Shown here: positions 41-27,222 of the stretch, in pieces | Layout: every line of letters begins with the position of its first letter | Position numbering within the stretch: the first letter of the stretch is position 1 | Assembly (NCBI GenBank): GCA_042571515.1 | Contig: JBHPHX010000001.1 | Coordinates: 75,508-111,678, forward strand | DNA length: 36,171 nt | Direction: 5' to 3' | Source: Patescibacteria group bacterium | GTDB lineage: Bacteria > Patescibacteriota > WWE3 > UBA101185 > UBA10185 | Notes under the pieces: model-generated | The model's input: the letters and a program-made list of their open reading frames with translations, nothing else | What the model was told of the DNA's origin: nothing | The model's database searches: none | Position numbers and translations under genes: made by a program

Positions 41-1132
41 TTAACCCCCCCACCTAAGCCTTGACTGGGTCTGTCTACCAACTCTTGTGACCGATAGGAA
101 ATGGTTTATGGCAGGGCGTCTGCCTTCCTCAAAATAATCCTTATCAAAAAATATATGACCATCTGTTATAGCCATTAGGTTCGTTTGAATATACCCCGAT
201 ATATCACCCTCTACGGTCTCTGCTACAACCAGACAAGTTATAGATTTGGGACCCTTATCAGTCTTAAAATTCCCCGCTCTCTCGAGTAACCTTGCATGTG
301 TGTAAAAAATGTCTCCGGGGTAGGATCCCCTTCCTGGAAACTTGTTATTAACCAAGGAAATTTCTCTGTAAAACTTAGCATGTGTGGTTAGATCATCCAG
401 AATCAGAAGGACGTCATGTCCTTGGTCTTTAAAATATTCCGCCAGGGCCATGGCCGTGTATGGAGTGATATAAATAAGGCCTAGGGGATCTGTAGAGGCT
501 GAGATTACCATCAGAAGCTTGTCCATAATTCCCTCCTCTTTAGCAAAATCCTCTATATTTCTTATATCAGCCTTTCTTTTAGCAATACTTGCATAAATAC
601 AAATTACATCCTCTTTAGCTTGTTTTAACATTGTCTGAAGTAAGAACTCGGTTTTTCCAATTTTTCTATCTCCAACAACAAGCTCTCTTTGCCCCCTGCC
701 AAGGGGGATCATGAGATCAACCAAAGTTACCCCAGTTAAAAACGGCTTGGTGATTCTTGATCTTTTGGCTATTTCTGGAGATGTAAAAACGTCAACCGCT
801 CTAAACTCCGGGTCACTTGGGAAGGGTCCGCTGCCCTCACACAGGGGGTTAAGGGATTGGCCCAGAAACGAAGTGTGTACCGGTACAGTAAGGTTTTTGT
901 TTGTACGAGCCACTTTACTACCAATTCCTATTCTAGGGTCACCAAGCAATAACACCTCTACGTATTCGTTTGTCATACCTAAAACATATCCAATTCCACC
1001 GGATTCAAATAGCACCAGCTCTCTGGGGCGGGCACCGGGCAATCCTTGTACCTGCACCACGGGGGGTTTAACAAGCTGAACGTATCCCAGCTCTTCTATC
1101 TCCTGTAGGCAGGTCTGAAAATCAAAATCCAT
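41..1132 (-). CDS. atpA: Divergent F1-ATPase alpha-like subunit, apparently frameshifted near the 3' end (an alternative frame stays open to the window edge)
   Basis: Motifs: GVTLVDLMIPLGRGQRELVVGDRKIGKT (Walker A), DVLLILDDL, PGRGSYPGDIFYTHARLLERAG, ITDGHIFF, GRRPAIN..SVTRVG. ATG at 1132 follows a GGAGGGGAG RBS. The stop follows a G7 run. Confidence 0.88.
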   Translation of the reverse strand: MDFDFQTCLQEIEELGYVQLVKPPVVQVQGLPGARPRELVLFESGGIGYVLGMTNEYVEVLLLGDPRIGIGSKVARTNKNLTVPVHTSFLGQSLNPLCEGSGPFPSDPEFRAVDVFTSPEIAKRSRITKPFLTGVTLVDLMIPLGRGQRELVVGDRKIGKTEFLLQTMLKQAKEDVICIYASIAKRKADIRNIEDFAKEEGIMDKLLMVISASTDPLGLIYITPYTAMALAEYFKDQGHDVLLILDDLTTHAKFYREISLVNNKFPGRGSYPGDIFYTHARLLERAGNFKTDKGPKSITCLVVAETVEGDISGYIQTNLMAITDGHIFFDKDYFEEGRRPAINHFLSVTRVGRQTQSRLRWGG

Positions 1133-1586
1133 CTCCCCTCCCCCATGGATAACTTTCAAAAATCTTGTCTAAAGTGGCGTTAAAATATACACCCTCATAC
1201 TCCATTATGACTCCACCATCCAGGAGGGTATTTACTTCAATATCAAGTAAAAACTCACCCCTCACATTATTTAAAAACCATGAGTAAACCTTCTCAATAA
1301 AAGACTCGCTTGGGAAAATGGCTATGGTTAGATGTATTACTTTTACATTTTTTAGATACCAAATTAAGTCATCTAAAACACCTGCTAAGTTCTTATTTTC
1401 ATACAGCGCGGAATCTAGCAAATTTGCCATTTCCAAGGATATAGATTCCTTTAAGGACTCCAAAACCAGGTGGTCTCCTTTTTTGAACAGCTCCCCACGC
1501 TTGTTCTCAAGTAGAGAAACTAGAGCTAGCGCAGCTTTGTGGGTTTTTATATTTTTACACCACTGTTTGGAAATTGCAGAATTCAT
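1122..1586 (-). CDS. atpH: ATP synthase delta/OSCP-like subunit
   Basis: C-terminus LDIEVNTLLDGGVIMEYEGVYFNATL resembles the delta C-terminal motif. Lies between b-like and alpha-like genes with overlapping stop/start codons. Confidence 0.7.
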   Translation of the reverse strand: MNSAISKQWCKNIKTHKAALALVSLLENKRGELFKKGDHLVLESLKESISLEMANLLDSALYENKNLAGVLDDLIWYLKNVKVIHLTIAIFPSESFIEKVYSWFLNNVRGEFLLDIEVNTLLDGGVIMEYEGVYFNATLDKIFESYPWGRGDGF

Positions 1587-2300: not shown

Positions 2301-3101
<801 letters not shown>

Positions 3102-3243
3102 CTATACATGAAGACTGACATACTTTTTCAAAAACCATTTATTGTTGGCGAGCAATTTAGCCTGGAAAAAAATATGACAATATTTACTCAAAAAAGGCCT
3201 GGAGATTGAGTTTATACTAAGAAAAAATTGAGTAAAAAAAGTG

Positions 3244-3272
3244 TTGACATTTTACTCTCAGCTACCTACTAT
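3244..3272 (+). promoter_or_regulatory. Sigma70-type promoter of the giant protein gene
   Basis: TTGACA-17 bp-TACTAT, about 60 bp upstream of the ATG at 3335. Confidence 0.7.
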
Positions 3273-3334
3273 ATACATAACCTTATTATTTGTTGAAACA
3301 ATAACCTTTAATAGGGTAAAAAGGTTTAGAAATT

Positions 3335-6300
3335 ATGCCTGCCCAAGGCCAAGCAAAAACACTATCATATCAGCCCCAATTAACTATTTCTAAGGCTGCA
3401 GTATTTTTGGGAATATCCCCCTCATCTCTCAGAAGGTATGAAAAAGAAGGTCGAATAACTACAAAACGACTAGAAAATGGGTACAGAGTATATTCTAAGG
3501 ATAACCTGGAGAGTTTAAGATCCAAACTCGAAATTGAAAGAAATCAAAGAAAAATTCAGATCCAAAAAAAAGCTATTGCTCGAAAAAAAGAATTGGAGAA
3601 ACTTCAAACGCAGCCGGAACCTGGGGTTATAAGATCAGACTTCGCAAAACCCTATTTGGCAAGTGGATTAAAAGTTTTTAGTTTAATCATTCTTTCAATT
3701 ACCCTATCCCTAGGAACGCTTTTTGTCCAGGATGATATTCCCTCTTTTTCAGGACAAATTGGCACTATCCTAGGCTTCAAAACTACAAAACCAGAAATGC
3801 AGGTTGGCTCTAGTGTAGAAGGTCAGGTTTTGGCAGATTATGACCTAAATAAAGAATACGAAATTAACTATAATATTCCTGCTACGTTCTTTGAAGGTGT
3901 AACCACAAACTCTATTTCTGGTGTAGAAATAATTGACACAACTACCGAGGATACCCTTGAAACAGCACTAGATATAGCTGGGGAGGTTGTTAGTACAGGT
4001 ATGCTATCTACTGTAATAGCAGATGGTGTCATAGATGGAGCTAATTTAATAGATGATTTTGAGTATGCGGGGGATGCGACGTTTAGTGGTGATACTACGT
4101 TCGGTGGTGAAGCTACATTTGAAGATAATGTATCCGTAGATGGGGAAACAGTGCTATCCGGAGATATTACACTAGAGGGAGATACTACAACAGAGGGTAC
4201 TTTTGACATAGATGGGGACTGGAGTATTTCTGGTACTGATGTAGACGCAACGGCAGATGAGCTCAACTCCATTGGTGGCGTAACAGATACTATAGCTATC
4301 ATTGATGGCTCTACTGTTACGGCAGGAGGGGTTATGTTTGGGAATGGAAGCATAATGACTCAGGATGCCGCGAATTTCTTTTGGGATGATACAAACAATT
4401 ACCTTGGACTTGGAAAAGCTAACCCAGCTTATGGACTAGATGTTGCAGGTACATTTAATGTAGATGGAGCAACTACACTTGATGGAGCGGTAACATTAGG
4501 AGATGCAACAGGTGATGATATAACAATAACAGGATATGTAGCATCAAATGTAATACCAAAAACTACCGATACCTATGACCTTGGCTTAAGTTCTGTTTCC
4601 AGAATGAATACCATGGATCAAGATCTTTCTGCTGCTGACGCTTCCTTTATTGGAGAAGATGCGGATGATTTTAGTGGCCATTTAGTCTCTTCAGCCGGTG
4701 ATGTTAATGGTGACGGTTATGATGATATTTTGATTGGGGCGGCTTGGGATTCCGACGGCATGGCGGCTGCGATGGCTGGTGAAACTTATCTAATCCTAGG
4801 CAAGGCTACGGGGTGGGCTATGGACACAGACTTATCGGCCGCTGATGCTTCCTTCATTAGTGAGGAGGCTACTGACAATAGCGGTTTTGCAGTCTCTTCC
4901 GCTGGTGATGTTAATGGTGATGGCTATGATGATATTTTGATTGGGGCTTGGGGTAATGATGACGGTGGCAATCCTTATGCCGGCCAGACTTATCTAATCC
5001 TAGGTAAAGCCACAGGCTGGGCCATGGATACGAATTTATCAACTGCCGATGCTTCATTTTGGGGTGAAAATGGCTGGGACAGAAGTGGTTTTGCAGTCTC
5101 TTCCGCTGGTGATGTTAATGGTGATGGCTATGATGATTTCGTCATTGGGGCCTGGGGCGATGACGATGGCGGCAACCTTGCTGGCCAGGCTTACCTTATC
5201 TTAGGTAAGGCTTCGGGCTGGGCCATGGATACTGATTTATCAGCTGTAGATGCTTCATTTTGGGGCGAGGCTGCTAGTGACTATGCTGGTTTCACAGTCT
5301 CTGCCGCTGGTGATGTTAACGGTGACGGCTATGATGATATGTTGGTAAGTGGTTATGGTAATAACCAGGTCTACCTTATCTTAGGTAAAGCTTCAGGTTG
5401 GGCCATGGATACCGATTTATCAGCCGTTGATGCCTCTTTTATTGGTGAGGGTAGTGGTCAGTACGTCGCCCTACGTACCGGACTTTCTTCAGCCGGTGAT
5501 GTTAATGGTGACGGTTATGATGATATTTTGATTGGGGCGGCTTATAACGATGATGGTGCCAATAATGCTGGCCAGACTTATCTAATCCTAGGTAAAGCTA
5601 CAGGCTGGGCCATGGATACGAATTTATCAACCGCTGACGCTTCCTTTTGGGGTGAGGTTGCTAGCGATCTTAGTGGTTATTCAGCCTCCTCAGCTGGTGA
5701 TGTTAATGGTGACGGTTATGATGATATTTTGATTGGGGCGGCTTACAATGACGATGGTGGCAGTGCCGCAGGTCAAACTTATCTTATTTTTGGAAAATCC
5801 TCGGGTTGGACTATGGATACGAATCTATCTGCTTCTGATGCCTCTTTCTGGGGTGAGGATACCAGTGATTATAGTGGTTATTCTGTTTCTGGTGCCGGGG
5901 ACACTAATGGCGACGGTTATGATGATATTTTAATTGGAGCCTTTGGTGATGATGATGGCGGCGAGAATGCAGGCCAAACATATTTGATTCTCTCCGATGG
6001 AAGTCAGTGGGATAATATATATGCTAGAAATGTAAAGGCTGGAGATTCTTTAAATGTAGGGGCTCATTTAAGATTACATCATGATACTATCCAGGCTTTG
6101 AGCCCCTTGTATTTAGATTCTACAAGAGTAAACGTTTTAGGTGGGTTAACTACTTTAGGGTATGTGGGTATAGGGTTCTCAGCACCAACTTCAGAACTTC
6201 ACATTGGAGGAACTACTCCCCTTTTAACAATAGGTGATGCGGGAGAAGAAGATACTGCTATGCTTTTTGATGGAGCTGCACAAGACTTTCACATTGGTCT

Positions 6301-9300
6301 TGATGATTCTTTAGATGATTTAGTTATCGGGACAGGATCAACTTTAGGTGCTGGTAACTTAGTAACTATTGAAAATGGAGGTAATGTAGGGATTGGAAAG
6401 ACTAATCCTGGGTATAACTTGGACGTTGCAGGTACATTTAATGTAGATGGAGCAACTACACTTGATGGAGCAGTAACATTAGGTGATGCAACAGGTGATG
6501 ATATAACAATAACAGGATATATAGCATCAGGTATTATTCCTAAAACAGATGATACATATGATCTAGGATCAGATGCATTAAGGTGGCAAAGTATATATGT
6601 AGGACCAGGATCTTTAAGTATAGGATCCTCTTCTCCAGATGAAGAATATACCCTATCCTGGGATGCAACAGAAAACTATCTTGGTTTTAACTACAATGCA
6701 TCAGGTAACCCTGAGATGGTTATTGATTCTTCAGGACAGGTGGGGATTGGAACGACAGCACCATCTTCGCAGCTTCAAGTAGCAGGAAACGTCGTTATTG
6801 GTGATGCCGCCACCGCCACAGACTACACTCTCACCTTTGATGGTGAAACTAATGATGGTGTTCTCACCTGGATGGAGAATGAAGACTATTTATTATTCAG
6901 CGACGATATTTACATGGCCTCCAGTCAAATCATATATTTTGACGGCGGGGGTGCAGCTCAAACGAATGGTGCTGGCCGTTTATATCTTACCGGACCAACC
7001 AGCATCGATTTTAGTTCTGGAATAGGTAACATAGATACAGTTTTGCGGTTTTTAGGGACTGATTATTCAGGTGTTCTCACCTGGATGGAAGACGAGGATT
7101 TGTTTTTATTTGATGACACTATAGAGATTAGAGGTACAGCTAAAAACCTTTTAATGACAGGGGTAGCCCACACTACCATATCTACTGATCCTATGCTTTC
7201 GATGGCAGCCAATGATTCTTTTCCTGTTGAAATGATTTCTGCTGGACCAGATAATAACGATAGCCCACTTATCAATTGGTTTAGAGCTAAAGGTACTCTG
7301 GAGGGTTCAGAAGCGGATGTTGTAGACGGTAACAGACTAGGAGCATTTCAGGCCAGAGCTTACGTGGGTGGGTGGCAACCAGCTTCAGCACAAATGAACT
7401 TTAGGGTTGATGGTGCACCAGGAACATATGCTCCAGGTTTGATTGAATTTACTGTAGGGGATGCAGATAATACTGCAGTTACCAGAACAGCTTTTCAGAT
7501 TAACAGTAATTTGAGTTCAAAAGCCTATGGTAATTTTACGATAGGAAATGGAGTAGCAACAACAGATTACACCCTCACCTTTGATGGTGAAACTAATGAT
7601 GGTGTTCTCACCTGGATGGAGGATGAAGACTACTTTCAGTTCTCTGATGAGATATTACTTCTAGACGGGGAGAAACTCATACTAGGTACTGGTAGCGACG
7701 GTACTCTTTACTCATCCTCTGATGATATCTACTTTGAAAATGATACCAGTGACAAAGATATCATCTTTAAGGTTAATGACGGGGGTGTAGATACTGAGGT
7801 AATGAGAATAGATTCCTCAACACCACAAATAGATTTTACTGTACTAGGGGTTAAAATTGGATCTGATACTTCTGAGTTTAACCCAACACTTACGTTCTCT
7901 GGTGTAGATAATGACGGCATTATAGGCTGGATGGAGGATGAAGACTACTTTTTGTTTCTTGATGACATTCTCCTTTTAGATGGTGAGAAACTAATCTTAG
8001 GGACTGGCTCTGACGGTACTCTTTACTCATCTTCTGATGATATATATTTTGAAAATGATACTCAAGATAAAGATATTATCTTTAAGATTAATGATAATGG
8101 TGTTGATACTGATATCTTGCATATTGATGGGAGTGAGTCCTGGATTGGTATAAGAACAGCTACTCCGCAGATGGGTATTGACTATGGTGGCGTGGGATCC
8201 TCGCATGGAACGTTTCTGTTTTCTGGGACTGCCGGTGGTGGCGGGGAGGGAATATCTTATGTAGATAGTGGCAGTGGTATGCGTAGAGCTATATCTTTCC
8301 CAGGAAGTGATCTTGTTGTACTCCAAAACAGAGCATCAAACGGTACAGTTGAGATAAGGGCTAATACATCAACAGCGGGCGAAAGTGGTGAACATACAAT
8401 TGGCACATTTGAAGATAACAAAATAACCATTGGGGACGGTCAAGCTGGAGTAGATTATCAATTAGCTTTCAATGGAGAAACTAACGACGGCCTCCTTACC
8501 TGGATGGAAGATGAAGATTACTTCCAGTTTGCCGATAATATAGTGGCACAAAATATTTTACCTGCGACAGATGATACATATGATTTAGGATCAGATGCAC
8601 TAAGATGGCAGAGTATATATGTAGGACCAGGATCTTTAAGTATAGGTTCCTCTTCTCCAGATGAGGAATATACCCTATCCTGGGATGCCACCTTAAACTA
8701 TCTTGGTTTTAACTACAATGCATCAGGTAACCCTGAGATGGTAATAGATTCATCAGGACAGGTGGGGATTGGGACTACGGCTCCAAGTACGGCTTTAGAC
8801 ATTGCCGGTACCGTCACTGCCACTGATTTTGCCTGCACAGACTGTTTGGAACAGGGAAATATCGCAAATAATGCCATTGGATACGGTGAATTAAAAATTG
8901 GCACCGGTTCTCAAGCGCTTAGTGATGATGCCAACGTAGACATGCATGAATACTCTTTCTTTCCCAACATGGAAAAAGATAATTGTGATAATGCTACTAG
9001 TCACGATTTGCAGATGTCTAATGATGATGAAACAGACAACACTGTCGGCCATTTCTATATTGATGTTAATAGCTCTTGTGGAGCAGGAGACGTCGATGTC
9101 CGCTGGAGCTACGTCACCTCCTCTGATCATCCTACTATCTGGACTATTATTGACTCTTTGGGCAACATCACCAAAAGCTGGGAAGCTGAGGATCCCACTG
9201 TCTATCCAGACAATCCCAATCCTCTTGCTGGTACCCCTCTTCAATCGGGAGAGTCATTCGCTTACGTTGAACCTCTAAGTATCTCCCAACTCAACACTAT

Positions 9301-10960
9301 TTATGCTTCTTTCCCTCAAACTGAGTATAATGCTATCTTTAGCGCTCTTAAACAATATTTGGTTGACGAAAGGCGCTTCCTCCCTTCCATGAGCTCCATT
9401 AATGATCTTAGCAATGTTCCCGATCGCTACCACTCAGCAGCTCGTTTCTGGGCTACCCGTTTTATCGCCAACCACTACGGTATCTCCCACTCTGAACTTA
9501 TAAAAAATACCATGTTTGTTATTTATGGGGATCTTACCCCCCAACCAAATTATTACACTTTTGTTTCTAACTATATTGACGAAAAAAACATTCAATTAGC
9601 TTCAATTAAAGTCAAGCAGGAACAACTTGATAACCTGCCCATCAACCAGAAACAGGCTGACATTGCCGAGTATTATTCCACTGGCAATAACACAAGGGAT
9701 CCAAAACCTGGAGATTTAATTTCTTTCAATCGTAAGGACAGCAGTTTTGTTACTCTAACTTCAAGATCCTATGACCCATATTTGATGGGGGTAATCTCTA
9801 CTTCTCCCCATGATACTCTGGGTCGCTCAACCGAGGATAATGATATTAAAGTTGCCTTGACAGGCAGGGCTCCTGTTAACATAAGTCCGTCAAGTGAGGC
9901 AATTGAACCTGGCGATCCAATTACATCTTCCAACACCAGTGGCTTGGGAACTAAAGCCCTAAAGCCCGGTTATGTAGTTGGTCGGGCTCTTGAATCCTGG
10001 CAGCCAGACTCAGACAAAAAATCGGTTTTAGTCCACCTTAACCTTCACTACTATGATCCTGATATTATGTTGGCAAAAAGTGATATAGACCTATTTACCT
10101 TCTCTTCAACAACTGATATAGACACTGGGGCTATTGACTTTCAACTCTTTAATCCCAATGATACCGCGGTTAGTAAAATCAACGCTTTTCAACATTTAGT
10201 CTCGGCCAATATCTCTTCGGGCTCTATTGAATCAGAGATCGTTACCGCCGACACCCTTAATATTCGGGGCCTGACCCTTGATGACTATATAGGCTCTGCT
10301 ATTCAAGGGGATCGGGAGCTGATTGAGGCTTTGCAGACAGAACAAGAGTTGGAGTGGGATAGTATAAATACTAGAGTAGATAACATAGAGGCATTATTGG
10401 AGGAATTGACTTCTGAAACTCAGGAAACAAGTGAATCTACAGAAACCCCGATAGAAACTCCATCTGAAATACTAGCTTCAATACAAAACATATTTGAGGA
10501 ATTTAAAACCTTTATAGCAGCACTGGGGCTATCCGCAACAGAAGAAACCGGGCTTGTTGTTGAAGTAGATATGAATGTACTTGGAGACACCACACTAGGA
10601 GACGTGGTAGTTACAGGGGACATACTAGCAGGACTGATTGAAATAAATACCCTAGATAACTTCATAAATATAAATAACATGATACTTCTTAAGGAAGATG
10701 GGACTGTGGAAGCCGAAAAACTTTCACTAAGTACCAACGTCTTGGGAACCTCCACAATTATAAAAGACGAAACTAAAGTAACAGTGGAAACCACCGCTAT
10801 AACAACCTCGTCTAAGGTCTTTGTCACTCCAACCATTGCAACTGATAGGGCGCTGGCCGTAACGGAAGTTAATGAGGGGGATGGGTTTGTAGTCGAGATA
10901 GGATCCTCTTCTAGCGAGGATATAGAGTTTAATTGGTTTATCGTAGACTCAAGAGAGTAA
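3335..10960 (+). CDS. Giant (2541 aa) membrane-anchored modular surface protein: MerR-type HTH, TM, FG-GAP propeller, tail-fibre-like repeats, IMC-like domain, coiled coil, C-terminal beta domain
   Basis: LTISKAAVFLGISPSSLRRYEKEG..R.ENGYRVY (HTH); VFSLIILSITLSLGTLFV (TM); 7x AGDxNGDGYDD; GxVGIGxxxP repeats; ADIAEYY...VVGRALESW; C-terminal ...EDIEFNWFIVD. Confidence 0.9.
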   Translation: MPAQGQAKTLSYQPQLTISKAAVFLGISPSSLRRYEKEGRITTKRLENGYRVYSKDNLESLRSKLEIERNQRKIQIQKKAIARKKELEKLQTQPEPGVIRSDFAKPYLASGLKVFSLIILSITLSLGTLFVQDDIPSFSGQIGTILGFKTTKPEMQVGSSVEGQVLADYDLNKEYEINYNIPATFFEGVTTNSISGVEIIDTTTEDTLETALDIAGEVVSTGMLSTVIADGVIDGANLIDDFEYAGDATFSGDTTFGGEATFEDNVSVDGETVLSGDITLEGDTTTEGTFDIDGDWSISGTDVDATADELNSIGGVTDTIAIIDGSTVTAGGVMFGNGSIMTQDAANFFWDDTNNYLGLGKANPAYGLDVAGTFNVDGATTLDGAVTLGDATGDDITITGYVASNVIPKTTDTYDLGLSSVSRMNTMDQDLSAADASFIGEDADDFSGHLVSSAGDVNGDGYDDILIGAAWDSDGMAAAMAGETYLILGKATGWAMDTDLSAADASFISEEATDNSGFAVSSAGDVNGDGYDDILIGAWGNDDGGNPYAGQTYLILGKATGWAMDTNLSTADASFWGENGWDRSGFAVSSAGDVNGDGYDDFVIGAWGDDDGGNLAGQAYLILGKASGWAMDTDLSAVDASFWGEAASDYAGFTVSAAGDVNGDGYDDMLVSGYGNNQVYLILGKASGWAMDTDLSAVDASFIGEGSGQYVALRTGLSSAGDVNGDGYDDILIGAAYNDDGANNAGQTYLILGKATGWAMDTNLSTADASFWGEVASDLSGYSASSAGDVNGDGYDDILIGAAYNDDGGSAAGQTYLIFGKSSGWTMDTNLSASDASFWGEDTSDYSGYSVSGAGDTNGDGYDDILIGAFGDDDGGENAGQTYLILSDGSQWDNIYARNVKAGDSLNVGAHLRLHHDTIQALSPLYLDSTRVNVLGGLTTLGYVGIGFSAPTSELHIGGTTPLLTIGDAGEEDTAMLFDGAAQDFHIGLDDSLDDLVIGTGSTLGAGNLVTIENGGNVGIGKTNPGYNLDVAGTFNVDGATTLDGAVTLGDATGDDITITGYIASGIIPKTDDTYDLGSDALRWQSIYVGPGSLSIGSSSPDEEYTLSWDATENYLGFNYNASGNPEMVIDSSGQVGIGTTAPSSQLQVAGNVVIGDAATATDYTLTFDGETNDGVLTWMENEDYLLFSDDIYMASSQIIYFDGGGAAQTNGAGRLYLTGPTSIDFSSGIGNIDTVLRFLGTDYSGVLTWMEDEDLFLFDDTIEIRGTAKNLLMTGVAHTTISTDPMLSMAANDSFPVEMISAGPDNNDSPLINWFRAKGTLEGSEADVVDGNRLGAFQARAYVGGWQPASAQMNFRVDGAPGTYAPGLIEFTVGDADNTAVTRTAFQINSNLSSKAYGNFTIGNGVATTDYTLTFDGETNDGVLTWMEDEDYFQFSDEILLLDGEKLILGTGSDGTLYSSSDDIYFENDTSDKDIIFKVNDGGVDTEVMRIDSSTPQIDFTVLGVKIGSDTSEFNPTLTFSGVDNDGIIGWMEDEDYFLFLDDILLLDGEKLILGTGSDGTLYSSSDDIYFENDTQDKDIIFKINDNGVDTDILHIDGSESWIGIRTATPQMGIDYGGVGSSHGTFLFSGTAGGGGEGISYVDSGSGMRRAISFPGSDLVVLQNRASNGTVEIRANTSTAGESGEHTIGTFEDNKITIGDGQAGVDYQLAFNGETNDGLLTWMEDEDYFQFADNIVAQNILPATDDTYDLGSDALRWQSIYVGPGSLSIGSSSPDEEYTLSWDATLNYLGFNYNASGNPEMVIDSSGQVGIGTTAPSTALDIAGTVTATDFACTDCLEQGNIANNAIGYGELKIGTGSQALSDDANVDMHEYSFFPNMEKDNCDNATSHDLQMSNDDETDNTVGHFYIDVNSSCGAGDVDVRWSYVTSSDHPTIWTIIDSLGNITKSWEAEDPTVYPDNPNPLAGTPLQSGESFAYVEPLSISQLNTIYASFPQTEYNAIFSALKQYLVDERRFLPSMSSINDLSNVPDRYHSAARFWATRFIANHYGISHSELIKNTMFVIYGDLTPQPNYYTFVSNYIDEKNIQLASIKVKQEQLDNLPINQKQADIAEYYSTGNNTRDPKPGDLISFNRKDSSFVTLTSRSYDPYLMGVISTSPHDTLGRSTEDNDIKVALTGRAPVNISPSSEAIEPGDPITSSNTSGLGTKALKPGYVVGRALESWQPDSDKKSVLVHLNLHYYDPDIMLAKSDIDLFTFSSTTDIDTGAIDFQLFNPNDTAVSKINAFQHLVSANISSGSIESEIVTADTLNIRGLTLDDYIGSAIQGDRELIEALQTEQELEWDSINTRVDNIEALLEELTSETQETSESTETPIETPSEILASIQNIFEEFKTFIAALGLSATEETGLVVEVDMNVLGDTTLGDVVVTGDILAGLIEINTLDNFININNMILLKEDGTVEAEKLSLSTNVLGTSTIIKDETKVTVETTAITTSSKVFVTPTIATDRALAVTEVNEGDGFVVEIGSSSSEDIEFNWFIVDSRE
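4442..6529 (+). repeat. Near-identical 105-bp intragenic direct repeats (4442-4546 and 6425-6529)
   Basis: Both encode VAGTFNVDGATTLDGAVTLGDATGDDITITGY(V/I)AS, with only a few nucleotide differences. Confidence 0.9.
4604..5992 (+). repeat. Seven tandem ~200-bp FG-GAP (integrin-alpha-like) repeats within the giant ORF
   Basis: AGD(V/T)NGDGYDD cores near 4691, 4898, 5101, 5303, 5490, 5691 and 5891; most are followed by YLILGKAxGWAMDT. Confidence 0.9.
6545..8772 (+). repeat. Near-identical 206-bp intragenic direct repeats (6545-6750 and 8567-8772), enclosing further repeats (DGxLTWMEDEDY about 5x; LLDGEKLILGTGSDG... 2x)
   Basis: Both encode TDDTYDLGSDALRWQSIYVGPGSLSIG...PEMVIDSSGQVGIG; differences are mostly at third codon positions. 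Confidence 0.9.
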
Positions 10961-11075: not shown

Positions 11076-11306
11076 TTAGATATTCCTTAAAATTAATAAA
11101 CTGTACGTTAACGAACATAGGCTCAAAAATAATCCAGTAAGTACCTTCAATAGATCAATACTAACATTGCCAAAAATGGAAGGCAACACAAAGGAGCCAA
11201 TAAAAAGCATACCCAGGTCTGAAAATGTTCCTGATATTCTTTCCAGTTGTAATCTAGAAAATGTAGGGGTGATTTTCTTGAATTTTATATAAATTATCCT
11301 TTTCAT
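11076..11306 (-). CDS. Small two-TM hypothetical membrane protein
   Basis: 76-aa ORF coupled to the comM stop (ATGA overlap); two hydrophobic segments. Confidence 0.65.
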   Translation of the reverse strand: MKRIIYIKFKKITPTFSRLQLERISGTFSDLGMLFIGSFVLPSIFGNVSIDLLKVLTGLFLSLCSLTYSLLILRNI

Positions 11307-12829
11307 AACTTAACCCTATATTGCAGCGCCTCGGCAATATGCTCCCTTTTAATATCCTCACTACTCTCCAAATCTGCAATAGTTCTAGCTACTTTAATAA
11401 TTTTAAAATATGCCCTGGCAGAAAGATTAAATTTTGTCACAGCTTGCTTCAAAATTATGTCAACTTCCTTAGATAAAACACAAAATTTACTCATATTCCT
11501 GTTTTCCATCTCTGCATTAGTAAAAATCCCCAGTCCAACAAAACGCTTGGATTGCATTTTTCTAGCCAAAGATACCTTATTTAATATGTCCCTGGATGTA
11601 TATTTGTCTACTTTTTTCTTTTTATTAAGAGACAATTCTTCCACTTCCACTGGAGACACCTGGACATGCAAATCGATTCTGTCTAATATTGGCCCTGAGA
11701 TCTTTTTGCTGTAACGGTTCACTTGAAACTGAGTACATTCACAATCTTTTTTTGGGTGATTAAGATATCCGCAGGGACATGGGTTGCTGGCAGCCACCAA
11801 AATAAATCTACATGGAAAAGTAATCGCACTATTACTCCTGGAAATTGTTATTTCTCCATCTTCAATGGGTTGTCTCAAACTTTCTAGTACATGTCTTGGA
11901 AATTCAGAAAACTCATCTAGAAATAACACTCCCCTATGCGCCAAACTTATCTCTCCTGGTTTAGGATACGATCCTCCACCAATCAAACCGGCATATGAAG
12001 TTGTGTGATGTGGAGTTCTACACTGTCTATTTGAAATAAGAGACTTGTTTGGAGCAATATAACCAGCTGAGGAATATATTTTAGTTACCTCCAAACTTTC
12101 CTCAAATGTTAATGTAGGCAGTATAGAAGGAAGGGCCTTAGCAAGCATAGTCTTTCCTCCTCCTGGAGGACCTATCATAAGAACGTTATGGCCGCCTGCT
12201 GCAGCAATCTCTAGGGCTCGTTTTGCCTTTTGTTGCCCTAAAATGTCTCCCATATCAAGCGGGTTATTGCCCGGCGAAAACCCGCGATTATTTAAAACAA
12301 ATTTTGTGGGCTTGATCTTCACAGACCCAACAAGATGGGAAAATAAGGCATCCAAACTTTCAACCCCAAAAACCTCAACTCCCTTAATAGCCGCTGCTTC
12401 TTGAGCACAACTTTTGGGAACAAAGACTTGTTTTATACCCTTTTCTCTTGCAAAAATTGATACTAGTAAGCTTCCTCTTGTATGGCGCAAACTTCCATCC
12501 AATGAGAGCTCACCATAAAATATAGACTTCTCCGGTATCTTCGCTTCCGTAATAGCAGACATTAATCCGGCTGCAATAGGTAAATCGTAAAAAGATCCTT
12601 CTTTGGGAAGATCTGCTGGTGCTAAATTTATGGTTATTTTTCTATTGGGAAAGTCAAAATCAGAATTTATTAGCGCTGTTTTGACCCTATCTCTGCTTTC
12701 AGCTACGGCTTTACTGGGAAGTCCAACAATGTCAAACCTAGGCATTCCCCTACTTGCAATATTGGCCTCCACCTCTACTCCAATAGTATCAATACCATAA
12801 TTTGCCGCTGAATTTACTTTAATCAACAT
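11303..12829 (-). CDS. comM: YifB/ComM Mg-chelatase-family AAA+ ATPase
   Basis: IVGLP..AVAESRDRV, ITINLAPADLPKEGS.YDL, GPPGGGKT, PGEISLAHRGVLFLDE, NPCPCG, EALQYR. True start at 12829 with a GGAGG RBS. Confidence 0.95.
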   Translation of the reverse strand: MLIKVNSAANYGIDTIGVEVEANIASRGMPRFDIVGLPSKAVAESRDRVKTALINSDFDFPNRKITINLAPADLPKEGSFYDLPIAAGLMSAITEAKIPEKSIFYGELSLDGSLRHTRGSLLVSIFAREKGIKQVFVPKSCAQEAAAIKGVEVFGVESLDALFSHLVGSVKIKPTKFVLNNRGFSPGNNPLDMGDILGQQKAKRALEIAAAGGHNVLMIGPPGGGKTMLAKALPSILPTLTFEESLEVTKIYSSAGYIAPNKSLISNRQCRTPHHTTSYAGLIGGGSYPKPGEISLAHRGVLFLDEFSEFPRHVLESLRQPIEDGEITISRSNSAITFPCRFILVAASNPCPCGYLNHPKKDCECTQFQVNRYSKKISGPILDRIDLHVQVSPVEVEELSLNKKKKVDKYTSRDILNKVSLARKMQSKRFVGLGIFTNAEMENRNMSKFCVLSKEVDIILKQAVTKFNLSARAYFKIIKVARTIADLESSEDIKREHIAEALQYRVKL

Positions 12830-13676
12830 AATACTTTCCTCCCTCCTCAAAAATCTGACCCGACAAAAGTAACATTGTAATTTCCGCCCCAACTTCAGAG
12901 GCTCCCAAACCCAATGTTTCACATAATATGTCCATATCCATTGGTTCTCTGGCCAAGCTAGACACAATCTCACTTCTTAAGGCATCACCAACAGAAACCT
13001 CTTTGAAAATAGGCAGGTCTTCGTAACCTCGACCAAATACATTTAATATGTCCTCTGCGTTTCTCACTAGCATAGCCCCAGAAGAAATAAGGTTATTTGC
13101 GCCAACGGAAGTAGATGACGTAATTTGCCCTGGGACTGCCAAAAGCTCTCTTCTAAACTCTCTGGTTAATCCCGCAGTAATAAGAGATCCACTCTTTTTT
13201 GCCGCCTCAACAACCAAGGTGGCCTGAGAAATACCTGCCACTATCCTATTTCTTTTTGGGTAAGTCCATAGTTGGGGTCTCACATCTCCGGGGTATTCCG
13301 AAATGACGAGACCCCCACTATCTAAAATCTCGTAGTACAAATCCTGTTGGTGGTCGGGGTTGATACACTCCACACCGCACGCCAAAACGGCTATTGTCTT
13401 GCCTTTAGCTGCTAGCGACGCCCTGTGGGCAGTGGCATCTATACCGTACATAAATCCGGAAACTACAGTCACACCTCGACTGGCCACCTCATACACCAGC
13501 TTTTCTGTAACCCTCCTTCCATATACTGTCATCCTCCTACTTCCCACTACGGCAAGGCAGTTGTCAAACAGGCTTCTATCCCAGTTTCCCTTATAGTAGA
13601 GCACTTCCGGAGGATCGGGTATTTCTTTAAGTAGTGTGGGGTACGTGGAACTATCTACGCTAACAGAACCGTACAT
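12819..13676 (-). CDS. dprA: DNA-processing protein DprA
   Basis: YPTLLKEIPDPP, AVVGSR, VSGFMYGIDATAH, RNRIVAG, VVEAAKKSGSLITA, C-terminal winged helix. Alternative start at 13688. Confidence 0.95.
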   Translation of the reverse strand: MYGSVSVDSSTYPTLLKEIPDPPEVLYYKGNWDRSLFDNCLAVVGSRRMTVYGRRVTEKLVYEVASRGVTVVSGFMYGIDATAHRASLAAKGKTIAVLACGVECINPDHQQDLYYEILDSGGLVISEYPGDVRPQLWTYPKRNRIVAGISQATLVVEAAKKSGSLITAGLTREFRRELLAVPGQITSSTSVGANNLISSGAMLVRNAEDILNVFGRGYEDLPIFKEVSVGDALRSEIVSSLAREPMDMDILCETLGLGASEVGAEITMLLLSGQIFEEGGKYYVD

Positions 13677-13714
13677 AATCAAAAACATACACGCTGTAAT
13701 TACAGGTGGAAATA

Positions 13715-13745
13715 ACTAAAATTCTAGCAAGACTAGAATTTTAGT
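13715..13745. promoter_or_regulatory. Palindromic box ATTCTAG-N5-CTAGAAT upstream of dprA
   Basis: actaaaattctag-caaga-ctagaattttagt (13-bp arms); same core at 14405 and 33803. Confidence 0.6.
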
Positions 13746-14361
13746 CTAAGGGGTCAGACCCGTACGGGTCTGACCCCGATAAGAGGTAATCTTTATAATC
13801 ACTTTTCTTATTACCAAAAAACTTGAGTATATGACATTCCTCAACAAAATCCCAATTACTCTGGCTTCCTCTACTGACATATCCGGGAGCACTAGAATAC
13901 TTATAATTCACAGAGTACTCGGGGTCGTGTGGATCTGGGTTGAGATGAATATATTTAGAAGTATGTATAAAATCAAAATCATCTTTAATTAGTCTGGCTT
14001 TATATACCCCCTGCAGTAAATGACCCGTTCTCCCACGTCTTTTGTTAAGGTAATAAGTAATACTAATGTTCAAACTGCGCATAAAATTAGACATACCTGA
14101 AATTGAACGCTGGCTCAATAAAAAGTGATAATGATTTTCCAATATACAAAAGGCAAAAAGGTTAATCTCGTTACTGTAGTTTCTAACTTGCCTGGTAGAC
14201 AGCTTGTTCCCGGCGTTTTCAATTAAATACCTTTGCAGAAGCATAAGTACAATCTCAAAGTCTTCTTCGGAAAACAAAAAGGTTTCCTTGTTAACTCCGC
14301 GGTTGTAGATATGATAAATCCCATGTTCCTTATAGTCCTTCACTGCATTCTTCGTTGGCAT
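13741..14361 (-). mobile_element. REP-associated tyrosine transposase (RAYT, Y1 HUH family)
   Basis: YHIYNRG, FAFCILENHYHFLL (HUH), RTGHLLQGVYK, KYIHLNP, YKYSS; flanked by REP-like palindromes. Confidence 0.9.
13750..13777. repeat. REP-like perfect 28-bp palindrome, copy 1
   Basis: ggggtcagacccgtacgggtctgacccc; overlaps the last codons of the RAYT (GSDPYGSDP). Confidence 0.85.
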
Positions 14362-22434: not shown

Positions 22435-23373
22435 TTAATCTATTACGCTCTCTATTTCCTCTTTGAAGTTGGTGTCTCCAAAGGCTTCTGCATCTTTTTT
22501 CAACTGTTCCTTTGAGACAACAAATAATCCATGCATTTCCTCCTTGTTAGCGTATATGGTGTCCTCATCTGTCAAAATAAGACAGAGTTGGGCATCCGTT
22601 TGTTCTGCCGGAGTTAGTCTTAGCGCTTTCTCAAAAAAGTTCTTGTCAACACTTCTTGCATAAATGTGAAGGGCTGCAAAGGGTTTGATTGGCTTGTGCA
22701 AGGACAGGCCCGCATTAAGGGTAAACGCATAGTCCTTATCTGCATCTCGTGCACTTTTATCAATATTCTGTGCAATTTCCTTTAAACCACCTAGCATGCT
22801 TCTGTAGTAAAGAAAGGATGGGGTTTGTTTCTCGGGTTTTGGGGCTGGGGCCGGCTCAGGTGCTGGTTCGTCACCACCCAATGAGGCTACTTCTTCCTTG
22901 GGGGGAGCAGGTTGCTCCTCCTTGAATTTGTTGGCTGCCTCTCTGAATTTTGCTAACCAATCTACATCTTCCTCAGTTTGGCTGGGTTGTTCCGCGGGGG
23001 GTGCAGGGGGTGGAGGAGGTGGAGCTGGAGGAGAAACTGGTTGTTTCTCGACCTTTGGTTCAGGAACGGGATCTGGAACTACTGGGGCTTTTGGAGCAGG
23101 GGGAGTTGGTTCAGAAACAGGTTTAGCCTGAACAACAGGGAGCGCCAGGGCCTCTTCTTCCTCAACTTCAAGTTCTGCTGCAACTTGATCTGGGACACCG
23201 CTAGGATACAAAAAGTCTAAAATATTATCTTTTGTAAACCTATGTCTGCCAGTAGCTGTCTTAACGTCAGCAATTAATTTTCCATCCTCCAAGTATCTGT
23301 AGACGGAGCGGAGGCTAACTCCAAGAATTTTGGCCACTTCCGTGGTCGTATAAAGTTTATCTTCTAATTTCAT
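22435..23373 (-). CDS. Excisionase/MerR-type HTH protein with Pro-rich linker and AbiEi-like C-terminal domain
   Basis: YTTTEVAKILGVSLRSVYRYLEDGKL..T.TGRHRF; PPAPPPPPPAPP; YAFTLNAG..LHIYA...GLFVVSKEQLKKD. Upstream TTGACA-17 bp-TTTCAT. Confidence 0.75.
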   Translation of the reverse strand: MKLEDKLYTTTEVAKILGVSLRSVYRYLEDGKLIADVKTATGRHRFTKDNILDFLYPSGVPDQVAAELEVEEEEALALPVVQAKPVSEPTPPAPKAPVVPDPVPEPKVEKQPVSPPAPPPPPPAPPAEQPSQTEEDVDWLAKFREAANKFKEEQPAPPKEEVASLGGDEPAPEPAPAPKPEKQTPSFLYYRSMLGGLKEIAQNIDKSARDADKDYAFTLNAGLSLHKPIKPFAALHIYARSVDKNFFEKALRLTPAEQTDAQLCLILTDEDTIYANKEEMHGLFVVSKEQLKKDAEAFGDTNFKEEIESVID

Positions 23374-24312: not shown

Positions 24313-25317
24313 CTAGTCCTTTATCATACTCTTACTAAATATTTCTAGATTTTCTATGGATCTACCCAAACCTTGAACCACGCAATAGAGGGGATCATCT
24401 GCTAAATGAGCAGGGACGCCGGTAAAAGAACTAATATATTTGTCTAGGTTTTTCAGTAGGGCGCCTCCCCCACTTAGGACAATACCTTTGTCTATAATAT
24501 CTGATGCTAATTCTGGCGGGGTTTTCTCCAAAACATTTTTCACACCTGAAGCAATACTTGAAATGGGAGACTCTAGACAAGAGACAACCTCTGTGGAAGT
24601 AAGGTTAATAGTTTTGGGAAACCCGGAGATAGAGTCTCTACCCTTCACCTCCATACTTTGCTCCTTGTGCAGTGGAACCGCAGCACCAATCGTAATTTTG
24701 ACATTCTCTGACATGTTAGGACCAATTACTAGCCCGTGCTGGCGTCTGACATACTGTGCTATTGCCTCATCTAAAGTGGTACCTCCAATCCTTATGCTTC
24801 CATGCACAACCATGCCATATAGCGAAACAATCGCGATTTCCGTAGTTCCGCCGCCTATATTTACAATCATATTGCCGCTTGCCTCCGAAACTGGCAGTCC
24901 AGCCCCAATGGCAGCAGCCAGCGGCTCAGGCATTAGGTAGGCTTTGCGTGCTCCAGCGGAATAAGCTGCCTCAATAACAGCACGTGCCTCCACGGAAGTG
25001 GCCCCAGCTGGAATGGAAATCATAACATCGGGTTTAAGTAACCTGGATCTGCCTATGGCTTTACCAACAAAATATCTAAGAAGGGCTTCCGTGACTAGAT
25101 AGTCTGCAATAACTCCACTGCGCAAAGGCTTCAGGGCCTCAATATTCTCCGGCGTTTTACCCAGCATATTGCGGGCTTCTTCTCCCACCGCAACTATTTT
25201 TTCGTCATCTTTGGAAATAGCCACAACGGTTGGCTCTTTTAAAATCACACCCTTGCCGGAAACATACACTATAGAGTTGGCAGTACCTAGATCAATAGCA
25301 ATTTTTCTCGAAAGCAT
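24313..25317 (-). CDS. mreB: Rod shape-determining actin homolog MreB/Mbl
   Basis: IAIDLGTANS, EPTVVA, GVIADY, EPLAAAIGAGLP, IGGGTTE, TPPELASDI, LSGGGALL. Confidence 0.95.
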   Translation of the reverse strand: MLSRKIAIDLGTANSIVYVSGKGVILKEPTVVAISKDDEKIVAVGEEARNMLGKTPENIEALKPLRSGVIADYLVTEALLRYFVGKAIGRSRLLKPDVMISIPAGATSVEARAVIEAAYSAGARKAYLMPEPLAAAIGAGLPVSEASGNMIVNIGGGTTEIAIVSLYGMVVHGSIRIGGTTLDEAIAQYVRRQHGLVIGPNMSENVKITIGAAVPLHKEQSMEVKGRDSISGFPKTINLTSTEVVSCLESPISSIASGVKNVLEKTPPELASDIIDKGIVLSGGGALLKNLDKYISSFTGVPAHLADDPLYCVVQGLGRSIENLEIFSKSMIKD

Positions 25318-25412: not shown

Positions 25413-26570
25413 ATGCTTCAAAGAAGTGGGTTTCAAACATTATTAACATTAATTATATTAGTGGGCATGACCACCCTGCTTTTTTTGTATACCTCGGGAT
25501 ATAGAATTCAACGCGAGAAAGACAGCACTACAATTGACCTAACAAAAACGGGCATGATAGGAGCAAAATCTGTACCCGATGGGGCCAACGTGTATTTAGA
25601 TGGAAAACTTAGAACCGCTACAGATGACACCATCGCAGGAGTGGAACCAGGAATACATACATTAAAAATCGCTAAAAAAGGATATGAGGTTTGGGAAAAA
25701 GAGATTGAGGTATTCGAAGAATTGGTTTCTGATATAACTGCTATCTTAGTATCCCAAAGCCCAAGACTGGAACCACTAACAAATACTGGGGCACAAAACC
25801 CAAGTATCTCCCCTTCTCTAGATAAGCTTGCATATTTCTCAAAAGACGAAACATCCCCTGGGGTATGGGTACTCTCTATGGGCCAAGGAGCAATTGGGCT
25901 TTTTAAAACAAATCCCGCCGTCATCTTAGAAGACACTGTCATAAACAAATATTCAGAGGGAGAGTCCATTATGTGGTCTCCAGATGAAACACAGCTTCTA
26001 GTGCAAATGGCACCTGGTAGACACTACCTAGTAGATTTACAAACCAATACTGCAAGGACTGTAATAAATTTAGACACTCTATTAGTAGATTGGAGAGCTA
26101 TACAAGATAAGAAGCGCGTGGATTTCATTTCCAAATTGGATATTCCCGACAACATAAAACAACTGGCTGTTTCTGAGGAAGTCTCCTGGGCTCCGGATCA
26201 GAAAAAATTTCTATATACTGAGCAGGTAGGCGACACACTTCAGTATCGTGTATACAACATGGAAAAACCCTTACCTGTTGGGGAAAAGGTAGAAACAGTC
26301 GTCTTTGAAACGAACGCCAACTCTCTTCAACCAACTGTAACTTGGTATGCGGATAGTTTCCACTTGCTTTTGGCCGAAGGTAATATAGAAGGAGAAAAGC
26401 AAGGAATTATTTATATAATCAGAATTGATGGTTCCAATAAGACCGAGGTCTACAGCAATACTCTACACTCTCCACATGTCTATAGCGCGCCGGGGGGAGA
26501 CAAAGTAATAGTTCTAACTTCTGTGAAGTCTGGAGAGCAAATTAATTTATATACTGTTGGGCTTCGTTAA
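25413..26570 (+). CDS. Membrane-anchored PEGA-domain protein with TolB-like repeats
   Basis: N-terminal TM, TGMIGAKSVPDGANVYLDG..PGIHTLKIAKKGYEVW, repeated (W)SPD motifs. Confidence 0.8.
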   Translation: MLQRSGFQTLLTLIILVGMTTLLFLYTSGYRIQREKDSTTIDLTKTGMIGAKSVPDGANVYLDGKLRTATDDTIAGVEPGIHTLKIAKKGYEVWEKEIEVFEELVSDITAILVSQSPRLEPLTNTGAQNPSISPSLDKLAYFSKDETSPGVWVLSMGQGAIGLFKTNPAVILEDTVINKYSEGESIMWSPDETQLLVQMAPGRHYLVDLQTNTARTVINLDTLLVDWRAIQDKKRVDFISKLDIPDNIKQLAVSEEVSWAPDQKKFLYTEQVGDTLQYRVYNMEKPLPVGEKVETVVFETNANSLQPTVTWYADSFHLLLAEGNIEGEKQGIIYIIRIDGSNKTEVYSNTLHSPHVYSAPGGDKVIVLTSVKSGEQINLYTVGLR

Positions 26571-27222
26571 CTTCTATTAATTTAGCGGTCACTACTAACC
26601 TATTAAAGGTGGTTCCAGGTGGATGGCAGGTTTGTAATGTCAAAATAGGTTCAATAACAGCTCGATCTATTGGGTTCACATTCCAACCCTTTACAACTTC
26701 CGAATTTACAACTTCATATACATAAATGTCTCTCTCAAAAAAGATGTGAACCCTATCCCCTATCTCCAGTTTCCTAAGCAAATTAAACACGTTTGCATAT
26801 TTACCCAATCTCCAAAAATTGAGGGAAGCATGAGCAAACAAGTAGGTGTTGCCTGGATTTTTAGAGGGATATTTGGAAACAGAGGCATGTGCAACTCCCC
26901 ACTTCAATGCTTCTAGATAAGCTTTCTCGTTTGTTACCGGCACATCTACTACGATGGGAACATTCACACCGATTTTTTCAATCACAATAGAGAAATCTTT
27001 ATTTACGGGCTTAATAGATATGGGCCGGGTGGTCAAAAATCTGGCGAAAACACTGTCTTCTTGTGCCGTGTCATCTTCCAATCTGAGCTCTTGGTTTCTA
27101 AACTCTTTTAGGCGGAACCAAACCTCGTCAATGATAAGCGGGCCAAAAGCGAATAGCAGGAATACAATTCCTATGAAGGTGAGTAGGTTGGGAATATATT
27201 TTTTGTATTTTGTCAGGTTCAC
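26542..27222 (-). CDS. Sortase-family protein
   Basis: N-terminal TM, GVAH, PGNTYLFAH, FNLLRKLEIGD, LTLQTC.PPGT...R catalytic motifs. Confidence 0.9.
   Translation of the reverse strand: MNLTKYKKYIPNLLTFIGIVFLLFAFGPLIIDEVWFRLKEFRNQELRLEDDTAQEDSVFARFLTTRPISIKPVNKDFSIVIEKIGVNVPIVVDVPVTNEKAYLEALKWGVAHASVSKYPSKNPGNTYLFAHASLNFWRLGKYANVFNLLRKLEIGDRVHIFFERDIYVYEVVNSEVVKGWNVNPIDRAVIEPILTLQTCHPPGTTFNRLVVTAKLIEVNEAQQYIN

Follow-up and report, generated by a model that had tools for sequence, protein, structure and literature searches.

A predicted membrane-anchored giant fibre protein with an N-terminal MerR-like domain in Patescibacteria

Bacteria of the Candidate Phyla Radiation (CPR), or Patescibacteria, are ultrasmall, and many of them are attached to host cells; few of their regulators are known, and their surface biology is mostly unknown. 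Here we describe a locus in a stretch of 36,171 nucleotides from a Patescibacteria group bacterium (the window; forward-strand positions 75,508 to 111,678 of contig JBHPHX010000001.1, GenBank assembly GCA_042571515.1). A single open reading frame (ORF) at 3335..10960 on the forward strand encodes a protein of 2,541 amino acids (aa), in which an N-terminal helix-turn-helix (HTH) is followed by one predicted transmembrane (TM) helix and a very long, fibre-like body. This ORF is the largest in the 557-kb assembly, which is 75% complete, and the genome contains one copy of the HTH-fibre gene. Immediately upstream, in the opposite orientation, begins an operon for an atypical F-type ATPase. The features of the locus are collected in Table 1.

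The fusion gene and its relatives

The initial annotation of this DNA had assigned an HTH, a basic helical segment and a TM helix to positions 3335-3730, a span that corresponds, as stated, to residues 1-132. The ATG at 3335 is the first start codon after the upstream stop and is preceded by a Shine-Dalgarno sequence (AAAGG, 3320-3324); ahead of the TM helix, the frame offers two other starts, both of them TTG, one within the HTH and one at codon 108, just before the helix. Among 31 loci from other genera, the HTH lies in an open frame in 29. The first 11 of these loci, compared by eye, all present the same order (Met, P-A-Q-like residues, HTH, charged linker, hydrophobic segment, and a conserved start of the outer body), while the 20 further loci include 18 with an HTH-bearing frame, 16 of which contain a TM segment at threshold and two of which (L015 and L026) have weaker hydrophobic stretches. 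Residues 1-160 were also matched in 42 of 60 relatives, including 28 of the 36 that belong to the same family, and many of these matches sit in open frames of 1,339-8,840 aa. Such relatives share ancestry, and counts over loci or motifs, here and below, overstate their independence.

An alignment of 24 N-termini, 21-32% identical to the query, contains seven invariant columns (M1, S28, R33, E36, I41, R45 and R51), six of which fall within the HTH; the linker is free to vary in length and sequence. This combination of invariant signature residues and a freely varying linker points to purifying selection on the HTH. Because the N-terminus and the HTH are conserved in relatives, the start is placed upstream of the HTH; it does not lie downstream of it, a possibility that the initial annotation had named as fatal to its own proposal, and the alternative starts lie only inside the HTH or just before the TM helix. 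As the same N-terminal plan recurs in relatives, the architecture is not due to chance.

An exhaustive phmmer search with residues 1-160 against 1.84 billion representatives returned 705 matches at E ≤1e-3, 29 of them at E ≤1e-10. Among the best 150 of the 705, most contain two matched stretches, i.e. tandem HTHs; 89 are proteins of at least 230 aa, with exactly one predicted TM helix in 72, while 25 proteins are at least 1,000 aa and 15 at least 2,000 aa in length. Rows of HTHs can be longer: one relative (P0002, 623 aa) carries eight tandem MerR-type HTHs and a TM helix near its C-terminal end (residues 492-524) followed by ∼100 residues, and another (P0003, 1,015 aa) consists almost wholly of 12 tandem MerR-type HTHs. 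The fusion is thus no isolated case; it belongs to a large family, many members of which have HTHs in tandem. Pfam scans of 71 relatives (53 mid-sized and 18 giant members, at differing thresholds of 1e-4 and 1e-9) gave MerR or HTH_17 matches in all but one, and outer domains were seldom identified (Peptidase_S74 in five, SH3_3 in four, K1-lyase_C in two, collagen in one, and Laminin_G_3 in one).

A sample of 300 further genomes of the phylum included 76 with a match at E ≤1e-5; within it, matches to the full N-terminal plan were limited to the family of the window (f1) and families f2, f9 and f45, and giants with tandem HTHs occurred in other families. Organisms named for members are Patescibacteria group bacterium, Candidatus Saccharibacteria and Candidatus Andersenbacteria. 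The label ‘MerR family DNA-binding transcriptional regulator’ is attached in databases to proteins of 2,849, 4,594 and 4,471 aa; other automatic labels are ‘excisionase family DNA binding domain-containing protein’ and ‘fibronectin-binding autotransporter adhesin’. A word-indexed homologue search with residues 1-160 among proteins of 1,397-4,447 aa recovered the query alone, and the family was then found by the exhaustive and genome searches; a search of genome contigs for related loci with a single protein yielded no confirmed relative. The architecture of MerR-type HTH, TM helix and giant fibre is not described in the literature searched, mostly at abstract level, nor did terms looked up in the main text of PMC10633639 reveal it. 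The protein would be a variant of something already known, a membrane-tethered DNA-binding protein.

One could suppose that a small MerR-type gene has been wrongly joined to a fibre gene by an error of sequencing or assembly, or by a mis-called start. The incompleteness of the draft assembly and the TTG at codon 108, which would yield a signal-peptide-like start, speak for such an artefact, but the comparative data effectively refute it: the frame is again uninterrupted in other genera, the N-terminus is conserved, a promoter-like site and a Shine-Dalgarno sequence precede the HTH, and exactly one TM helix follows the HTH or HTHs in most of the database relatives counted above. Comparison of gene sequences thus shows the fusion of HTH, linker, TM helix and fibre to be genuine and kept across genera. 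The possibility that the HTH is a general N-terminal or export tag of large surface proteins was also considered and rejected, since the other giant ORF (2,396 aa; G000:C13, start 4160, reverse strand) begins with a hydrophobic, signal-like N-terminus followed by a Glu-/Val-rich stretch and has no HTH.

Table 1. Features of the HTH-fibre gene, its upstream region and its divergent neighbour (window coordinates).
Feature	Position	Strand	Basis or remarks
Divergent neighbour, 262-aa ORF: predicted signal peptide, beta domain and ATP-synthase-c-like hairpin	2301..3089	-	Likely start ATG 3062; AlphaFold2, Foldseek, profile search
Divergent-operon promoter-like site, TTGTGA-16-TATAAT	3069..3096	-	Consensus scan; ends 7 nt before ATG 3062
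Four copies or variants of TTGAGTAAA, ∼22-23 bp apart, between the divergent promoters	3183..3257	.	Two exact, inverted (3183-3191, 3228-3236)
Fibre promoter-like site, TTGACA-17-TACTAT	3244..3272	+	Consensus scan
5' leader with inverted repeats; CCTT able to pair with Shine-Dalgarno AAAGG (3320-3324)	3277..3334	+	Moderate support only
N-terminal tail, residues 1-15	3335..3379	+	M-P-A-Q start conserved; M1 invariant; Met followed directly by P-A-Q or similar residues in many loci
Minimal MerR-type winged HTH, residues 16-62	3380..3520	+	Pfam; AlphaFold2 pLDDT 96-98; Foldseek; invariant S28, R33, E36, I41, R45, R51
Single long basic helix, residues 55-92	3497..3610	+	AlphaFold2 helix; charge count
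Short low-confidence linker, residues 93-108	3611..3658	+	AlphaFold2; hypervariable length in relatives
Predicted single TM helix (signal anchor), residues 109-130	3659..3724	+	AlphaFold2 helix 109-130; hydropathy 106-133
Acidic repeat-rich ectodomain, 2,410 aa	3725..10957	+	388 D/E vs 88 K/R; exact internal repeats
FG-GAP region, seven repeats, residues about 437-900	4643..6034	+	Pfam FG-GAP 128.5 bits, 7 stretches; repeat cores residues 455-788
Beta domain common to the divergent neighbour protein, residues 2115-2222	9677..10000	+	BLASTP 35% identity over 110 aa, E 3e-9; same domain matched in own genome
Weak K1-lyase_C-like C-terminal domain, residues 2470-2537	10742..10945	+	19.6 bits, below Pfam cut-off 27

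Domains of the protein on either side of the membrane

The N-terminus matches only MerR-type and HTH_17 families in Pfam, with MerR (PF00376) at residues 17-53 (39.1 bits, cut-off 28.2) and MerR_1 (PF13411) at residues 17-62 (29.1 bits, cut-off 21.6), the latter covering model positions 2-47 of 69; NCBIfam matches over the same stretch (HspR, FtsR, CueR and ZntR) are all sub-threshold. An AlphaFold2 model of residues 1-180, built on the 24 aligned sequences, has block-mean predicted local distance difference test (pLDDT) scores of 88-98 across residues 11-90, and places a strand at 15-17, helices at 18-25 and 29-37, strands at 43-45 and 51-54, and two further helices at 55-92 and 109-130. The best Foldseek matches to this model in the PDB are BldC-DNA complexes (6ama and 6amk; root-mean-square deviation, rmsd, 1.4 Å over 49-50 residues), the RacA-DNA complex 5i44 (ranked third and eighth; TM-scores 0.62-0.67 relative to the target), and the mycobacteriophage Pukovnik Xis protein (4j2n), followed by GlnR/TnrA, HiNmlR, CarH, MtaN, SoxR and CueR. 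These matches have a probability of 1.00, with E values no better than about 1e-3 owing to the small size of the domain. Sequence comparison with the PDB ranks CueR (E 2e-4) and 6ama (E 8e-4) highest.

The HTH claimed at residues ∼16-62 is thus borne out by Pfam matches above cut-off, and its assignment to the MerR type holds for the fold; the form, as predicted from the model and from the matching of only positions 2-47 of MerR_1, is the minimal one of BldC, RacA and Xis, not that of a classical MerR regulator, whose second pair of helices, antiparallel coiled coil for dimerisation and effector domain it lacks. The basic segment said to follow the HTH is, in the model, one long helix, with 11 K/R vs four D/E in residues 60-92. 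Given its conserved signature residues and the DNA-bound state of its structural neighbours, the domain probably binds DNA. A predicted complex of three copies of residues 1-140 scored 0.00, which has no bearing either way on oligomeric state.

The single TM helix of the initial annotation reappears both in the AlphaFold2 model and in a simple hydropathy scan, the two sources of all TM calls made here; in the scan, residues 106-133 are the sole TM segment in the first 1500 residues. The helix is rich in S, T and G, and the 108 residues that precede it contain 23 K/R vs 11 D/E. Across the family, the flanks of the TM helix have a mean charge of +1.9 on the N side vs +0.9 on the C side (N>C in 50 of 86, N<C in 21), a modest signal in the direction of the positive-inside rule. 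We infer an N-in/C-out (type II) topology, because a folded domain of 110 aa with no signal peptide precedes the only TM helix and an FG-GAP/fibre-type body follows it.

The outer body agrees in length, acidity and repetitiveness with what had been claimed (about 2400 aa, acidic and repeat-rich), and contains many exact internal repeats of 15-42 aa. Its sequence matches weakly those of PDB chains 8ond (bd2133) and 8ojn, which we take to be Bdellovibrio fibre proteins; comparison of residues 1-420 with the ESM Atlas gave scores of at most 0.78, which are leads only. Peptidase_S74 was absent from the 2,541-aa protein in the Pfam scan, and the C-terminus of the fibre is conserved in four of five orthologous 3' ends. 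With its FG-GAP propeller and tail-fibre-like repeat modules, the ectodomain is most likely an attachment fibre.

The divergent operon, the shared upstream region and other neighbours

The divergent neighbour heads an operon in which its c-like product is followed by a 248-aa ORF, a 154-aa ORF, and the ATPase subunits alpha, gamma, beta and epsilon, and which runs to window position 41 and beyond (locus L039). Of the 31 loci, 13 have a homologue of the 262-aa ORF next to the fibre gene, and the two are adjacent (≤1.2 kb) and divergent in 12 of the 16 genomes where the neighbour was found; in the remaining four, they are 6 kb apart (one genome), on different contigs (two), or the HTH match is missing (one). 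The beta domain of the neighbour, as modelled by AlphaFold2, has its best Foldseek matches in a C-terminal fragment of phi29 gp12 (3gqh) and in phage cement proteins. The C-terminal two-helix hairpin of the neighbour protein resembles the ATP synthase c subunit 3v3c_F (rmsd 1.7 Å over 70 aa, 30% identity, E 0.049), and in a profile search against the PDB, five of eight matches to the hairpin were c subunits (E 0.017-0.03), in alignments that include the GRNP loop. Where the matched c subunits have their carboxylate, the neighbour protein has I, V or L.

In a survey of the genome of the window and 25 relatives, Pfam ATP-synt_C and ATP-synt_A were found neither in the former, at 75% completeness, nor in 14 of the 15 relatives searched that belong to the same family. 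Eleven of these 15 have the c-like fusion at full length, and one relative (G008) has canonical a and c genes together with the c-like fusion. On the strength of these gene inventories, most of the family of the window may possess an F-type ATPase with no recognisable ion path. The alpha gene is split into overlapping ORFs of 147 aa (ATP-synt_ab_C) and 372 aa (nucleotide-binding domain), located at L039:6146-6589 and 6549-7667 on the reverse strand; together they take up window 41-1159 and adjoining DNA that precedes the window. This may be a frameshift, a sequencing error or a true split.

Each of the two divergent genes has a promoter-like site (Table 1), and most orthologues of the fibre gene are preceded by a recognisable TTGAC -35 element. 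A MerR-type promoter with a 20-bp spacer was considered for the fibre gene and rejected, as the scan gives a spacer of 17 bp. The exact 9-mer TTGAGTAAA occurs twice in the 36-kb window, both times between the divergent promoters, and two further copies there carry two mismatches; the motif was found post hoc. In the upstream regions of other loci, GAGTAAA occurs ten times (nine in one orientation), distributed over eight of 29 regions, vs 2.06 expected, and 0 of 2000 shuffles reach this count, which shared ancestry inflates.

Between the -10 element and the ATG lies a palindromic leader element, conserved in 18 of 30 loci, whose 3' arm contains the Shine-Dalgarno sequence. In a 10-bp helix drawn by hand, 74.6% of cells are paired, vs 31-51% for slid controls, and 16 cells are compensatory, a result reached by five of 500 shuffles; a matrix of the 5' arm finds its best match in the whole 557-kb genome in the leader of this gene. 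Four loci have the 5' arm a third time, immediately before the -35 element. Rfam gave no match in 3000-3500. The palindrome is a candidate translation-control hairpin.

Other genes of the window were noted in passing. Just downstream of the fibre gene, a comM-like Mg-chelatase ATPase gene and dprA lie at 11303-13688 (reverse strand), and ComEC (Competence and Lactamase_B, in two ORFs) and a ComEA-like HHH_3 protein are encoded at 31437-33779 (reverse strand). A link of the fibre gene to DNA uptake was rejected, as comM and dprA are next to it in none of five orthologous 3' flanks; rplJ is found near its 3' end in two of five orthologous loci. A 206-aa ORF at 13741-14361 (reverse strand), between dprA and rplJ, has a weak match to IS200-like Y1 transposases, and may explain the local break in synteny. 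A 312-aa protein encoded at 22435-23373 (reverse strand) combines an N-terminal, Xis-like HTH_17 with a long, proline-rich acidic linker and a C-terminal domain, with no TM segment; its gene stands between a gene for a WecG-type glycosyltransferase and starch-synthase-like genes, two genes from mreB. Near mreB are also genes for a sortase (26542-27222, reverse strand) and a PEGA-domain protein (25413-26570, forward strand). A sortase is thus available for surface proteins.

What the fusion may do, and what it resembles

The initial annotation had suggested a contact-sensing transcription factor, a tether from chromosome to attachment site, or autoregulation of fibre abundance, and each of these roles may apply. 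The reading that we favour, with a probability of about 0.4, is that of a membrane-tethered DNA binder that would act as a local regulator on the shared divergent promoter region. The HTH would be held at the inner face of the membrane on its 38-residue basic helix and would bind double-stranded DNA while tethered; its most likely target would be the ∼270-bp region common to the fibre gene and the divergent ATPase operon, and the fibre protein would regulate its own gene, the ATPase operon, or both, in cis. Because the fibre gene and its neighbour both encode membrane proteins, the coupling of transcription and translation to insertion should already place the locus at the membrane. Since minimal MerR-like domains such as BldC act as multimers, assembly or clustering of fibres outside could set the number of HTHs that lie side by side inside, and such grouping would provide feedback on fibre number or engagement. 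A local regulator is favoured because there is one copy per genome, the arrangement is divergent, and the upstream motifs are gene-specific. The conservation of the divergent operon in particular speaks for local regulation; the genes of classical MerR regulators, too, are divergent from their targets.

Several observations weigh against this local regulator. No operator for the HTH was identified in a half-site cluster test: a half-site matrix derived from orthologues gave three matches in the promoter region of this window, the top cluster lay elsewhere, and 59 of 100 shuffles equalled the result. The spacers of the promoter-like sites, known from consensus scans only, are 17 and 16 bp vs the 19-20 bp of MerR-activated promoters. 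Gene-specific, conserved upstream elements exist, and nothing ties them to the HTH; the leader element may act at the RNA level and be unrelated to it. RNAalifold found no consensus structure for the leader, and a leader covariance model added one locus (L019) among 14 held-out HTH-gene loci, weakly and at the expected position (E 0.85). Relatives carry four, eight or 12 HTHs in a row, and such rows look more like avidity devices for bulk DNA than like gene-specific regulators. The ectodomain contains no recognisable sensor domain, and the motif counts, given the shared ancestry of the relatives, overstate independence.

Somewhat unlikely, in our estimate, is a tether in the manner of RacA, in which the HTH would bind many chromosomal sites, or bind non-specifically, and pin the nucleoid to the membrane at the fibre (e.g. 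at an attachment pole), serving the positioning or segregation of DNA instead of gene regulation. The RacA-DNA complex is among the three best structural matches, the helix adjoining the HTH is strongly basic, and relatives have two, four, eight or 12 HTHs per chain. RacA itself, according to PMC4914108, joins an N-terminal winged HTH to a coiled coil and fixes the chromosome at the pole via DivIVA, a link that the TM helix would replace; BldC, the top match, forms multimers that bind cooperatively to direct repeats (PMC5859096). Against a tether stand the single copy per genome in this family, the conserved divergent operon and the gene-specific upstream motifs, which together are the signature of a local regulator; nor did any repeated, centromere-like site come to light in the genome, although no search aimed at one was made. 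It is also possible that the HTH does not bind DNA, but is a cytoplasmic protein-binding or anchoring module that positions or stabilises the giant fibre or helps in its export; this we judge to be unlikely. The succession of HTH, basic juxtamembrane stretch, single TM helix and outer domain is the plan of RodZ, whose HTH binds MreB; an mreB gene is present in the window at 24313-25317, and the half-site test identified no operator. However, the HTH of RodZ is of another type (Xre), the conserved residues here are the DNA-binding signature of MerR proteins, the nearest structures are DNA complexes, and no protein-binding use of the fold is among the high-ranking structural matches.

An extension of the local regulator, which we hold to be quite unlikely, would make the fibre and the ATPase one functional unit: assembly of the fibre, or its engagement with a host, would cluster HTHs on the shared promoter and switch the ATPase, coupling attachment to an ATP-driven device of the envelope. 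The ATPase would then have a c-like ring lacking the ion-binding carboxylate and a fibre-type beta domain on the outside of the cell. If true, contact would be signalled to DNA without any soluble intermediate, and this in bacteria whose regulators are very few. Still more improbable is a factor released by cleavage, as in Notch or RseA, where contact or force would lead to a cut near or within the TM helix and free the HTH as a soluble transcription factor. Two homologues of Peptidase_M50 site-2 proteases are encoded in the genome, but such proteases occur in all 14 control genomes, and their presence is uninformative. A TM helix rich in S, T and G and a huge ectodomain suited to mechanical or contact input would fit cleavage, and a precedent exists in MYRF, a cleavage-activated factor in which a TM helix and a tailspike-derived domain accompany the DNA-binding domain (PMC3742443). 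The 24-sequence alignment, in contrast, contains no conserved cleavage motif in the hypervariable linker or the TM helix, and where relatives have Peptidase_S74, it is extracellular and at the far C-terminus, so that self-cleavage cannot free the HTH.

Whichever of these roles applies, a host-facing fibre of up to ∼8,800 residues with one to twelve cytoplasmic HTHs would amount to a direct physical link between surface and chromosome, which could serve gene control or the positioning of DNA; the cell surface may, in other words, be wired directly to DNA. Public labels (MerR-family regulator and, once, adhesin) hide this architecture. Saccharibacteria include cultivable, genetically tractable strains, and the presence of members named from this group makes the idea open to experiment. 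A second lead, and an unexpected one, is the conserved pairing with an atypical ATPase operon.

Among the closest known systems, ToxR and CadC share the layout, with a cytoplasmic N-terminal DNA-binding domain, one TM helix and an extracytoplasmic C-terminal part in a single chain. Their DNA-binding domain is an OmpR-type winged helix, whereas the HTH described here is of the MerR type (only MerR-type and HTH_17 matches being found in Pfam), and their small sensor domain contrasts with an outer part that is a fibre of 2,410 aa. RodZ is similar in plan, and again the HTH here is of the MerR type. Classical MerR regulators (MerR, CueR, SoxR, BmrR) differ in having an effector-binding region and in promoter spacers of 19-20 bp. 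As in RacA, the chromosome anchor of Bacillus subtilis, a MerR-like winged HTH is followed, in the predicted structure, by a helical part that would fix DNA to the envelope; unlike RacA, which is soluble and acts via DivIVA and a C-terminal coiled coil, the protein has a TM anchor of its own and then a giant ectodomain. Phage tail fibres and the fibre proteins of predatory bacteria share its repeat modules and, to judge from relatives with collagen, Peptidase_S74 and K1-lyase_C, C-terminal domains of the chaperone type, but the cytoplasmic DNA-binding domain and the N-terminal signal anchor set it apart from them.

CadC offers a parallel in gene order, as its target gene adjoins the regulator gene (PMC5430869 and PMC11484849). 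BldC of Streptomyces and phage Xis proteins are, like the HTH here, minimal MerR-like domains with no effector domain, and the multimers that BldC forms on direct repeats (PMC5859096) parallel the tandem HTHs of relatives. Whereas BldC, with its 68 residues, is a free protein, this HTH is covalently tied to membrane and fibre. In animals, MYRF likewise unites a DNA-binding domain and a TM helix in one chain, together with a tailspike-derived trimerising domain (PMC3742443); this domain, Peptidase_S74, is also present in five of 71 relatives. In MYRF, however, S74 comes after the DNA-binding domain and ahead of the TM helix, in the cytoplasm, and frees the factor, whereas the order in relatives is HTH, TM helix, fibre, S74. 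Finally, the pairing of a giant fibre gene with an atypical F-type ATPase operon recalls, as an analogy only, the gliding machinery of Mycoplasma mobile, in which giant membrane-anchored surface proteins act together with a derived F1-like ATPase (PMC8406192 and PMC7052211); the two are unrelated in sequence, and the pairing described here is known from genes alone.

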